DNA of 64,000 nucleotides. Source: a phage. Position numbers and translations under genes: made by a program. The notes under the pieces are model-generated. The model ran no database searches, had not been told where the DNA came from, and worked only from the letters and a program-made list of their open reading frames with translations. Below, piece by piece: positions 36,411-38,321 of this stretch. The stretch lies in NCBI GenBank assembly GCA_025677605.1, contig GCA_025677605.1_4110.1; one strand, 5' to 3'. Positions within the stretch are counted from its first letter, which is position 1. The number at the start of each line of letters is the position of its first letter.

Positions 36411-36632
36411 TTAATTACGTTTAAAATGATATGTGCCTTTATCATCCTGTACGCCCCATACTGATTTACCATCAACACCAGTGAAGCCGGATTGTAATTC
36501 AATATGGAAACCATTATTATCAACTACAAAAACTTTTTTATTTTCATCCCGATAACATTGATATTCTGAATCAACATTAAAGGCCGCATCATTCAGAAGA
36601 TTGGAAGCGTAAATGCAAGTCATTGTAGTCAT
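36411..36632 (-). CDS. hypothetical small protein
   Basis: start moved to MTTMTC (ATG 36630-36632) after RBS aagga. Confidence 0.5.
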   Translation of the reverse strand: MTTMTCIYASNLLNDAAFNVDSEYQCYRDENKKVFVVDNNGFHIELQSGFTGVDGKSVWGVQDDKGTYHFKRN

Positions 36633-36684
36633 GATTTTATTCCTTATTACCAGGGAGAACCGTTCCCCCCTCTCGATATAAAAC

Positions 36685-36712
36685 ATTATACTTGATTCTA
36701 AGTACAATGCAA
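36685..36712 (-). promoter_or_regulatory. sigma70-like early promoter
   Basis: minus strand TTGCAT, 16 nt spacer, TATAAT, followed by GC-rich hairpin 36651-36672. Confidence 0.55.
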
Positions 36713-36757
36713 GTACTTTTTAAAAATAGTTTTCAGTACTGACAATACTTATATTAT

Positions 36758-36800
36758 AGATACACTTATGCACCCTATGGGTCAGTGAGTTATCTCTCAA
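36758..36800 (-). repeat. conserved noncoding element, copy 2
   Basis: atgcaccctatgggtcag then terminator-like hairpin 36816-36846. Confidence 0.45.
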
Positions 36801-36854
36801 TGACTATATAATAGCAAAGGGACTGACTGGAGTCAATCCCTTTTTTAATCTTTT

Positions 36855-37439
36855 TTATCGTGTTATAGTTACGGCTTTTACGTCGCGTTGTTTATAGTAC
36901 TGATTCCAGATATTGCGGGTTAAACCGTAATCAAGTACTTTAATCAGGCCATTGCGATCTTGGCCTATGTTCTGCTTTCTGATATCTCTTATCGTTAGTG
37001 TTGATAAGGTATCATCAACGTGTTGTAGTGCATCAGCGAAATGGTGTTGGCGTTCAATAGTGTTACGTTTGACATTGTACTTTAATTCATTGCAAGCGTT
37101 AACGTGCTTTACACTGCCTTTGCTTGCAGTACTCAAACGATCCATAACAATAAACATATTATCAGGATCGCTTAAATGCATATGCACCTTAGCAAAGTAC
37201 TGTTTAAGGTGAGGGCGGTCATAATCTAAAAAATTCCATACCTTACATTCTGTTTCATTTTGTTCTACGCCAGCGTCACAATTAGCGACCTTAATCACTA
37301 ACCGATCATTTAAAGCGAATACGATACGGGATGATCCGGCCCCGATGATCTCCAGACCAGCCAACCGACAAGCTGTAAGGATCTCTTTGTTAGTTTCCAT
37401 TTCTGCCAGTGTACGGATGAATTTAGTATAATTACGCAT
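36855..37439 (-). CDS. minimal protein kinase-like protein (ePK-like fold, tentative)
   Basis: 194 aa; IGAGSSRIVF (Gly loop), VIKV (Lys), DIRKQNIG (catalytic-loop-like), KVLDYG (DFG-like). Confidence 0.45.
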   Translation of the reverse strand: MRNYTKFIRTLAEMETNKEILTACRLAGLEIIGAGSSRIVFALNDRLVIKVANCDAGVEQNETECKVWNFLDYDRPHLKQYFAKVHMHLSDPDNMFIVMDRLSTASKGSVKHVNACNELKYNVKRNTIERQHHFADALQHVDDTLSTLTIRDIRKQNIGQDRNGLIKVLDYGLTRNIWNQYYKQRDVKAVTITR

Positions 37440-37508
37440 TGCATTTACTCTTTAAGATAGCAGGGAGGTATTCCCTGCCTTGATGTGACTATTATATGTT
37501 AGTACTAA

Positions 37509-37736
37509 TTAGATTGCAACAGTTTTATTTGCAATTACAGAATGAATTGCGGTTTTACCTGATTTAGTACTGAATACATTAGCACGACCATTTTCAATAG
37601 TGATGCGGTATTCACCTTTACTATCAATGAGGTTGATAAATTCAGGAGTACTAAACCGAGTTACTTTAAAAGTCAGTACATTGAGTAGGTCCACCAGCGT
37701 AGTAGTTTCTTTGATGCGTTCTAAGATATTAATCAT
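37509..37736 (-). CDS. hypothetical small protein
   Basis: 75 aa; ATG 37734-37736; upstream 60-bp unit repeated before next gene. Confidence 0.5.
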   Translation of the reverse strand: MINILERIKETTTLVDLLNVLTFKVTRFSTPEFINLIDSKGEYRITIENGRANVFSTKSGKTAIHSVIANKTVAI

Positions 37737-38066: not shown

Positions 38067-38321
38067 TCAACGTGATATTAGTTTTATTTTCTTATTATAT
38101 TGTTGGTGTTCATATAGGTTTATCTTTCCTGTATTCTCGATTACTATTCTGTTGTTGGTGTCCACGTCGATTACACGCAGTTTGCCGTTGCTTAACTTCC
38201 TGGGCAATAGATTACCATTAATAAACTCATTAGCAAGCTGTACGGCCTTTGTGATGATTCTCTGTGGTGCTTTATAGTGTACCCGCAAGATATTATCTTT
38301 TGATAGTTGAACCTTAATCAT
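38067..38321 (-). CDS. hypothetical small protein
   Basis: 84 aa; ATG 38319-38321. Confidence 0.5.
   Translation of the reverse strand: MIKVQLSKDNILRVHYKAPQRIITKAVQLANEFINGNLLPRKLSNGKLRVIDVDTNNRIVIENTGKINLYEHQQYNKKIKLISR

Follow-up and report, generated by a model that had tools for sequence, protein, structure and literature searches.

The phage DNA analysed here (contig GCA_025677605.1_4110.1 of assembly GCA_025677605.1; 64,000 nucleotides (nt) in all, hereafter the window) carries on its minus strand, at positions 36855-37439, a gene for a 194-amino acid (aa) protein of the PHROG 4301 family whose fold is almost certainly protein-kinase-like. The gene is real and under strong purifying selection, since the ratio of non-synonymous to synonymous substitutions (dN/dS) in pairwise comparisons with three orthologues was 0.04-0.08. 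The residues that form a kinase active site are conserved across the family. Considering the whole chain of evidence, we lean towards an active, early-expressed phosphotransferase that would act as a protein kinase on host proteins, in take-over of the cell or in counter-defence. The gene had been singled out by an original prediction, made from the DNA letters, as a stripped-down kinase among early cassettes; the open reading frame (ORF) listing of the window confirmed one ATG-to-stop ORF of 194 aa with exactly the limits proposed and supplied its strand, which that prediction had not given.

The kinase evidence was marginal when the protein was searched as a single sequence. A phmmer search against the PDB gave matches at E>=0.012, 59 of the 60 listed being protein kinases, and its alignments placed Lys50 in the beta3 Lys region of PKC-theta, RDIRKQN opposite RDLKLDN and DYG opposite DFG. 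An NCBIfam scan of the 194-aa protein returned nothing useful. The protein matched PHROG 4301 (phrog_4301, labelled 'unknown function') over its full length (residues 3-187, E=2.2e-41), and distant and tandem relatives were likewise assigned to this family. A word-indexed search found 13 relatives, while 1.84 billion cluster representatives, searched exhaustively with a profile, yielded 2085 matches with E<=1e-3; E was <=1e-10 for 249 of these, each representing one 50%-identity cluster. When a 51-member family profile was compared with the PDB, MKK4 came first (E=5e-6), its catalytic loop and DFG lining up with those of the family, and MST1/2, BTK and MKK6 came next; 905 sequences were matched at E<=10, and the best 60 of these 905 were all protein kinases. 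Pfam matches among the 51 members were all sub-threshold and comprised Pkinase in 11 (best E=5.7e-6), ABC1 in six and PK_Tyr_Ser-Thr in three. The profile search proposed as a check thus supported the kinase assignment for the family, whereas the single sequence stayed under the Pfam threshold. At the level of sequence comparison, the family profile is decisive for kinase likeness.

The register of the catalytic residues relative to solved kinases was taken from sequence alignments, and conservation was determined over 180 aligned rows, namely the query and 179 full-length domains from 150 proteins. The coding sequence and its active-site segments are listed below.

36855-37439, minus strand: coding sequence of the putative minimal protein-kinase-like enzyme of the PHROG 4301 family (ORF, PHROG match, orthologues, dN/dS, predicted model)
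37317-37346, minus strand: Gly-rich loop IGAGSSRIVF, residues 32-41, with Arg38 at the third Gly of GxGxxG (G35 96%, S36 89%, R38 99%)
37287-37298, minus strand: strand beta3 VIKV, residues 48-51, with the ATP-anchoring Lys50, the VAIK equivalent (K50 100%; aligns with the PKC-theta beta3 Lys region)
37248-37262, minus strand: alphaC segment QNETE, residues 60-64, with Glu64 as the alphaC Glu equivalent (Q60 99%, N61 98%, E64 99%; model helix 55-73)
36963-36989, minus strand: catalytic loop RDIRKQNIG, residues 151-159, with Asp152 and Asn157 (aligns with RDLKLDNIL of PKC-theta and RDIKPSNIL of MKK4)
36924-36932, minus strand: DYG, the DFG-equivalent metal-binding motif, residues 170-172 (D170 and G172 100%; aligns with DFG of solved kinases)
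36894-36920, minus strand: short C-terminal helix TRNIWNQYY, residues 174-182, the domain end (Y182 77%; alignment gapped past 183; model helix 175-182)

The motifs on which the original prediction rested (IGAGSSRIVF, VIKV, DIRKQNIG and DYG) were all located in the translation in kinase order, and alignment to solved kinases agreed that the residues it had picked correspond to the VAIK Lys, the HRD-loop Asp and Asn and the DFG Asp. The catalytic quartet of protein-kinase-like (PKL) enzymes was retained almost throughout the 180 domains (K50 100%, E64 99%, D152 96% with Glu in a further 3%, D170 100%), and G159 (99%) and G57 (98%) were similarly constant. Among the residues picked, Lys50, Asp152 and Asp170 were therefore conserved at 96-100%, but position 157 was Asn in just 32% of the domains (H/N/S/Q overall). 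This metal-binding Asn was present in the query and its close relatives; in many distant members a different polar or acidic residue lay no more than one position away.

The variable Asn, together with an extremely reduced C-lobe, would suit a pseudokinase, that is, an ATP-binding scaffold that sequesters a host factor without phosphotransfer. Pseudokinases, however, characteristically lack at least one catalytic residue, whereas Lys50, Glu64, Asp170 and Gly172 were essentially invariant and Asp152 was kept at 96% over 180 diverged domains, including all four copies of one tandem protein, and the query itself retains Asn157. We consider a pseudokinase improbable.

The family domain ends at Tyr182, 12 residues past the DYG Asp, and the query itself ends 24 residues past Asp170 (22 past DYG). 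The elements that complete the C-lobe of Pkinase domains, namely the activation segment, the APE motif and helices alphaF-alphaI, were all absent. Because the family alignment ends at Tyr182 also in multi-copy proteins, in which the next kinase copy begins soon after the Tyr182-equivalent end, this absence is a property of the family and not a truncation. Explanations by damage to the gene were dismissed as well. A frameshift that leaves the C-lobe in the next ORF is ruled out by the terminator after the stop codon; the downstream ORF encodes an unrelated 73-aa protein; and the whole family, internal tandem copies included, ends at the same point. Two signatures were specific to the family, a G-x-G-S-S-R loop and G-x-x-Q-N-x-x-E at the start of alphaC. 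Gln60 and Asn61 lie one helical turn ahead of Glu64, so they should, like Arg38, point into the cleft for nucleotide and substrate.

AlphaFold produced a model with a predicted local distance difference test score (pLDDT) of 95.1 and a predicted template modelling score (pTM) of 0.91 when it was given the 51-member alignment, and a model with pLDDT 48 when it was given a shallow alignment of 11 close homologues. In the former, an N-terminal helical hairpin (residues 4-26, with helices 4-12 and 17-26) precedes a five-stranded N-lobe (including strands 30-34, 38-42, 47-52 with Lys50, and 96-100) with a long alphaC helix (55-73, with Glu64), while the C-lobe consists of helices 107-120 and 130-145, the catalytic loop, strands 158-160 and 166-168, DYG and the short helix 175-182. 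The predicted protein thus shows the bilobal PKL arrangement, with a five-stranded N-lobe and alphaC facing a C-lobe that carries the catalytic loop and the metal-binding Asp. Foldseek comparison with the PDB returned OSR1, MEK1, the Lpg2603 kinase and APH(2''), all with probability 1.00 and with several APH(2'') structures among the top matches, and the fold-library comparisons of the model gave matches to protein-kinase-like folds only; TkArkI, a kinase-fold tRNA 2'-kinase, was among the matches. Among predicted viral structures (BFVD), the protein's orthologues and a pair of paralogues from Pectobacterium phage CBB matched best, followed by a long tail of small phage proteins that included annotated T7-type kinases at TMq 0.53-0.58. 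As far as the predicted model goes, no known family is singled out as clearly closest. Structure prediction had been named as the test that could overturn the stripped-down kinase fold by giving a different one; no non-kinase fold was obtained. Chance resemblance of motifs in a protein without a kinase fold would account for the sub-threshold Pfam result of the single sequence and for the poor shallow-alignment model, but it is effectively refuted by the family profile match to kinases (E=5e-6), by the pLDDT 95 model with matches to kinase-like folds alone, and by the conservation of the motif residues across the family.

The window was 89-93% identical at the DNA level to the Asteriusvirus jumbo phages of E. 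coli, with genomes of ~350 kb, namely A4, 121Q, PBECO4, G17, Sharanji and vB_Ec-M-J (megablast and tblastn against phage genomes), and the kinase gene was carried by 54 phage records. Orthologues were 92-96% identical in most phages of the Asteriusvirus group and 73% in CMSTMSU, and 36-39% identical in the related jumbo phages RaK2, K64-1, Muenster, Munch, SE_PL, EJP2, XbC2 and Kaldavass; those with names include Sharanji gp063 (WNN14351.1), G17_00012, Munch_046 and RaK2_00356. In the IMG/VR related-loci search with alignment of close homologues, phage 121Q was the sole locus. No second copy of the kinase was found elsewhere in the window. A 359 kb contig at NCBI encodes an identical protein, recorded as 'hypothetical protein [Escherichia coli]'; a complete jumbo-phage genome is therefore present among bacterial assemblies, and a paper on the T7 kinase, T7K, notes the same for G17 and Munch (PMC13645617).

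The orthologue of phage vB_Ec-M-J (16690-17274) lies within an annotated direct terminal repeat of 21,525 bp. By local BLAST this repeat corresponds to ~32.3-54 kb of the window, in reverse orientation and with its inner boundary near 32.3 kb, so the window spans the whole terminal-repeat equivalent. The window also contains sequence past the physical end, as is seen when an assembly is concatenated or circular. Klebsiella phage Muenster offers a parallel, since its orthologue overlaps a predicted terminal repeat. The following signals for expression flank the gene.

37491-37519, minus strand: sigma-70-like promoter TTGCAA-17 nt-TATAAT, directly 5' of the kinase gene (promoter scan, 10/12 matches)
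37461-37479, minus strand: 7-bp GC-rich hairpin GCAGGGA-ATACC-TCCCTGC, 3' of the promoter -10 and 5' of the ribosome-binding site (sequence inspection)
37448-37453, minus strand: Shine-Dalgarno-like AAAGAG, 8 nt 5' of the ATG (sequence inspection)
36816-36843, minus strand: terminator-like hairpin right after the stop codon, overlapping the -35 of the next gene's promoter at 36836-36808 (terminator and promoter scan)

The hairpin at 37461-37479 is not a typical terminator because no T-run follows it, and it may be a 5' mRNA hairpin. In phage G17, the site orthologous to the terminator at 36816-36843 carries a terminator annotation. The intergenic module of which this terminator is part (36625-36856: terminator hairpin, next promoter and 5' leader), 3' of the kinase gene, recurs in at least 18 same-orientation copies, 72-88% identical, at ~33.1-51.3 kb and only in the terminal-repeat-equivalent part of the window. 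The gene therefore has the features expected of an early gene, namely a sigma-70-type promoter, its own terminator and, by homology, a location in the terminal repeat; the placement of the gene among early cassettes was sound in this sense, with early expression suggested by promoter type and position. Similarly, in the related phage CBB, regions of short ORFs with RpoD promoters, including the terminal repeat, were inferred to hold early host-take-over genes (PMC5259590).

These observations suggest a mechanism. The gene, lying inside a direct terminal repeat of ~21 kb, would have a copy at each end of the virion DNA and should for this reason belong to the genes that enter the cell and are expressed first, with host RNA polymerase transcribing it from its own sigma-70-type promoter. 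In the protein, Mg-ATP would be held by the Lys50-Glu64 pair and Asp170, and Asp152 would serve as the catalytic base for transfer of the gamma-phosphate to a hydroxyl group. The enzyme would be constitutively active, as expected from the absence of an activation loop. Its likeliest targets would be Ser/Thr residues of host proteins, modified for take-over or counter-defence as with kinases of the T7 gp0.7 type.

Several observations weigh against the reading as a protein kinase with targets among host proteins. The Pfam models Pkinase (PF00069) and PK_Tyr_Ser-Thr each matched the query with E=0.001 and 18.9 bits, under the gathering score (31.7 bits for Pkinase), and no Pfam kinase model reached its gathering score in the query or in any of the 51 members. 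The low conservation of Asn157 given above points the same way, and every peptide-substrate-binding element of canonical kinases is missing. SAICAR synthetase and small-molecule kinases matched the model with Z scores equal to or above those of protein kinases, so the fold leaves protein and non-protein substrates unsettled. Finally, a T7-like role may already be filled, because a true T7K homologue is encoded by the same phages.

An active phosphotransferase of the same fold could accordingly modify a small molecule (antibiotic-like, a sugar, a nucleotide or an immune signal) or RNA, including tRNA, and we regard this as possible though rather unlikely. Precedents exist in the aminoglycoside, Kdo and choline kinases and in the archaeal tRNA 2'-kinase ArkI. 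The APH(2'') structures among the top Foldseek matches and the presence of TkArkI fit such a substrate, as do the absence of the activation segment and of the peptide-docking C-lobe, and the invariant residues Arg38, Gln60 and Asn61 around the phosphate and substrate entry have no equivalent in canonical protein kinases. In addition, a fusion of the kinase domain to 2H-phosphoesterase and CCA-adding (tRNA nucleotidyltransferase) domains suggests a context of RNA-end processing, although this evidence comes from a single family member. On the other hand, the sequence profiles favour true protein kinases (MKK4, MST, BTK and PKC), the Pfam models for APH, choline kinase, Kdo and RIO gave no match to the query at E<=10, and those for APH, choline kinase, RIO, Kdo and OspG none in the 51 members at E<=0.1. 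In the query, R-D and D-x4-N are also spaced as in Ser/Thr kinases, and published work treats OspG and NleH, which are similarly minimal and without an activation loop, as protein kinases. The protein kinase remains the reading that we prefer.

The same invariant residues, Arg38 at the third Gly position of the loop and Gln60 and Asn61 on alphaC, are unusual enough to suggest a kinase fold with other nucleotide-dependent chemistry, such as the AMPylation, glutamylation or nucleotidyl transfer represented by SelO and SidJ, and weak ABC1/UbiB-type matches in 6 of the 51 members point in that direction. Searches with Pfam, the PDB profile and the fold libraries, however, revealed no specific similarity to SelO, SidJ or like families, and the order and spacing of the motifs are those of ordinary phosphotransferases; such chemistry appears very improbable.

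We compared the family with known kinases and kinase-like enzymes. Eukaryotic-type Ser/Thr kinases (PF00069; MKK4/MKK7, PKC-theta and PknB) gave the best sequence-profile matches and share the order and spacing of the Gly-rich loop, beta3 Lys, alphaC Glu, (R)D-x4-N and D-[FY]-G. The present protein differs from them in having Arg38 in place of the third loop Gly and an N-terminal helical hairpin as part of the domain.

The T7 gp0.7 family (T7K, JSS1_004) likewise comprises phage kinase-like enzymes encoded behind a host-type promoter at the leading genome end, with a whole-domain structural likeness in BFVD at the TMq given above. T7K and JSS1_004 provide a functional model in which promiscuous phosphorylation at an early stage disarms defences, as both have been described as early phage kinases disarming defence systems (PMC13645617; PMC12345140). 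The comparison with T7 gp0.7 made in the original prediction held at the level of the kinase superfamily, but no closer kinship was found: the families belong to PHROG 2828 and PHROG 4301, respectively, and although the G-loop, Lys and D-x4-N were in register, the hhalign probability was 11%. The T7 gp0.7 family has a DPV motif where the query has DYG, the query did not fall within the T7K profile, and it has no C-terminal shut-off or DNA-binding domain. A true T7K homologue is instead encoded by Sharanji gp144 (WNN14432.1; 224 aa; OR545507.1 66182-66856, L005:30183-30857, minus strand; E=4e-8), which has ITDPLS in place of DFG and lies outside the 64,000-nt window. With genes of both the gp063 and the gp144 type, Asteriusviruses therefore encode two unrelated minimal kinases. 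The 2026 paper on T7K reported that jumbophages G17 and Munch have diverged T7K homologues whose motif is DP(V) (PMC13645617); because of this motif and the similarity of gp144 to T7K, these homologues are probably of the gp144 type and not products of the PHROG 4301 gene.

OspG and NleH (PF22303, model length 152) are likewise kinases of ~150-200 residues without an activation loop, and NleH itself is carried on an E. coli prophage. PF22303 OspG_kinase, which matched NleH1 of E. coli O157 Sakai at 1.3e-10, gave no match for the query (E<=10) or for the 51 family members (E<=0.1), and hhalign of the family against NleH1 aligned the N-lobe alone with a probability of 1.3%. E. coli has no ubiquitin system. 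Activation of OspG reportedly requires E2~ubiquitin (PMC11078946). RIO kinases, Bud32 and TkArkI are also small kinase-like enzymes and were structurally no closer than ordinary kinases; the RIO1 Pfam model matched neither the query nor the 51 members, and Bud32 was absent among the matches listed. None of the three is known to have a classical activation loop. With APH(2'') and SAICAR synthetase the likeness was at the level of the fold, without sequence-profile similarity, and the catalytic motifs of the present protein fit protein kinases better. Both are larger (237-301 residues), and their extra part includes substrate-binding regions. Pfam scans and hhalign ruled out membership in the T7K, OspG/NleH, RIO, APH or ABC1 families. 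A defence-system kinase was also considered and rejected, as PADLOC gave just weak generic kinase matches, to PD-T4-6. On these profile comparisons, the PHROG 4301 family is a minimal kinase-like family outside the T7K and OspG/NleH families.

Some metagenomic relatives of the gene contain more than one copy of the domain. Single ORFs of 450-970 aa carried two to four tandem kinase-domain copies (P0021, P0022, P0028, P0030 and P0033; L003:204-2975), and in P0022 the Lys, the Glu and both Asp were kept in all four. It seems unusual for a single phage-type polypeptide to hold several intact minimal kinases in tandem. Two further proteins, both genuine ORFs on phage-like contigs, combine the domain with others. 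P0121 (L009:2318-12064) is a 3248-aa PhageMin_Tail tape-measure-type protein with two kinase-domain copies inside, and P0110 (L008:8001-14393; 2130 aa) has two N-terminal kinase domains together with GNAT, 2H-phosphoesterase and CCA-adding/poly(A)-polymerase domains. Since ejection of the DNA into the cell can bring tape-measure-type proteins with it, the presence of a kinase domain in a PhageMin_Tail protein is consistent with its delivery into the cell.

A broader and more doubtful proposal is that PHROG 4301 constitutes a distinct and widespread class of ultra-minimal phage kinases of ~155-180 residues, used as a first-strike module with a substrate or chemistry possibly unlike that of every characterised phage kinase. 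In such a class, alphaF-alphaI would be replaced by the N-terminal helical hairpin, which would close the domain, and the signature would read G-x-G-S-S-R ... K ... G-x-x-Q-N-x-x-E ... D ... G ... D-Y-G. The class might be deployed as stand-alone proteins in jumbo-phage terminal repeats, as tandem arrays of two to four copies or embedded in tape-measure-type proteins, and its substrate could be RNA, a nucleotide or a specific defence protein.

The genes upstream of the kinase gene were inspected as well. A 75-aa ORF (37509-37736, minus strand) lies directly 5' of it, and this position was kept in EJP2 (44% identity) and Munch (37%), with no such neighbour detected in RaK2, XbC2 or Kaldavass; its product may be a partner of the kinase, or the arrangement may be plain conserved synteny. 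Two genes 5' of the kinase, an 84-aa ORF (38067-38321, minus strand) encodes a ParE-like toxin-domain protein (Pfam PF24732, 42.6 bits with a cutoff of 24.4). A 67%-identical ParE-like homologue is located two genes 5' of the kinase in RaK2, and on a metagenomic contig (L016) a ParE-like gene lies 4 nt 5' of a kinase homologue with 51% identity; that homologue and the gene after it overlap by 4 nt. This proximity, too, may be plain synteny.

The assignment of a kinase fold is correct and not new, as databases and one paper precede it. UniProt labels the PBECO4 orthologue 'Protein kinase domain-containing protein' and that of fEgEco12 'Serine/threonine-protein kinase PRP4'; GenBank records of Munch, SE_PL, K64-1, Muenster, Turkey3, Turkey5 and ph0011 carry a (putative) protein kinase label, and the Sharanji paper already names the orthologue a kinase. 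New relative to the literature searched are the large size of PHROG 4301 and its distinctness from T7K and OspG, a domain that ends right after DFG, an active-site signature of its own, and the tandem and PhageMin_Tail forms. PHROG 4301 is a second, unrelated kinase-like family of jumbo phages, located in terminal repeats, with the true T7K homologue elsewhere in the genome. If the protein is just another promiscuous protein kinase, the result is incremental. If it is active, jumbo phages would use two different kinases, and the domain would be among the smallest kinase-like domains described and useful for defining the minimal catalytic core of the fold. Activity would also open up a family of 249 representatives (E<=1e-10), including tandem and tape-measure-embedded forms.

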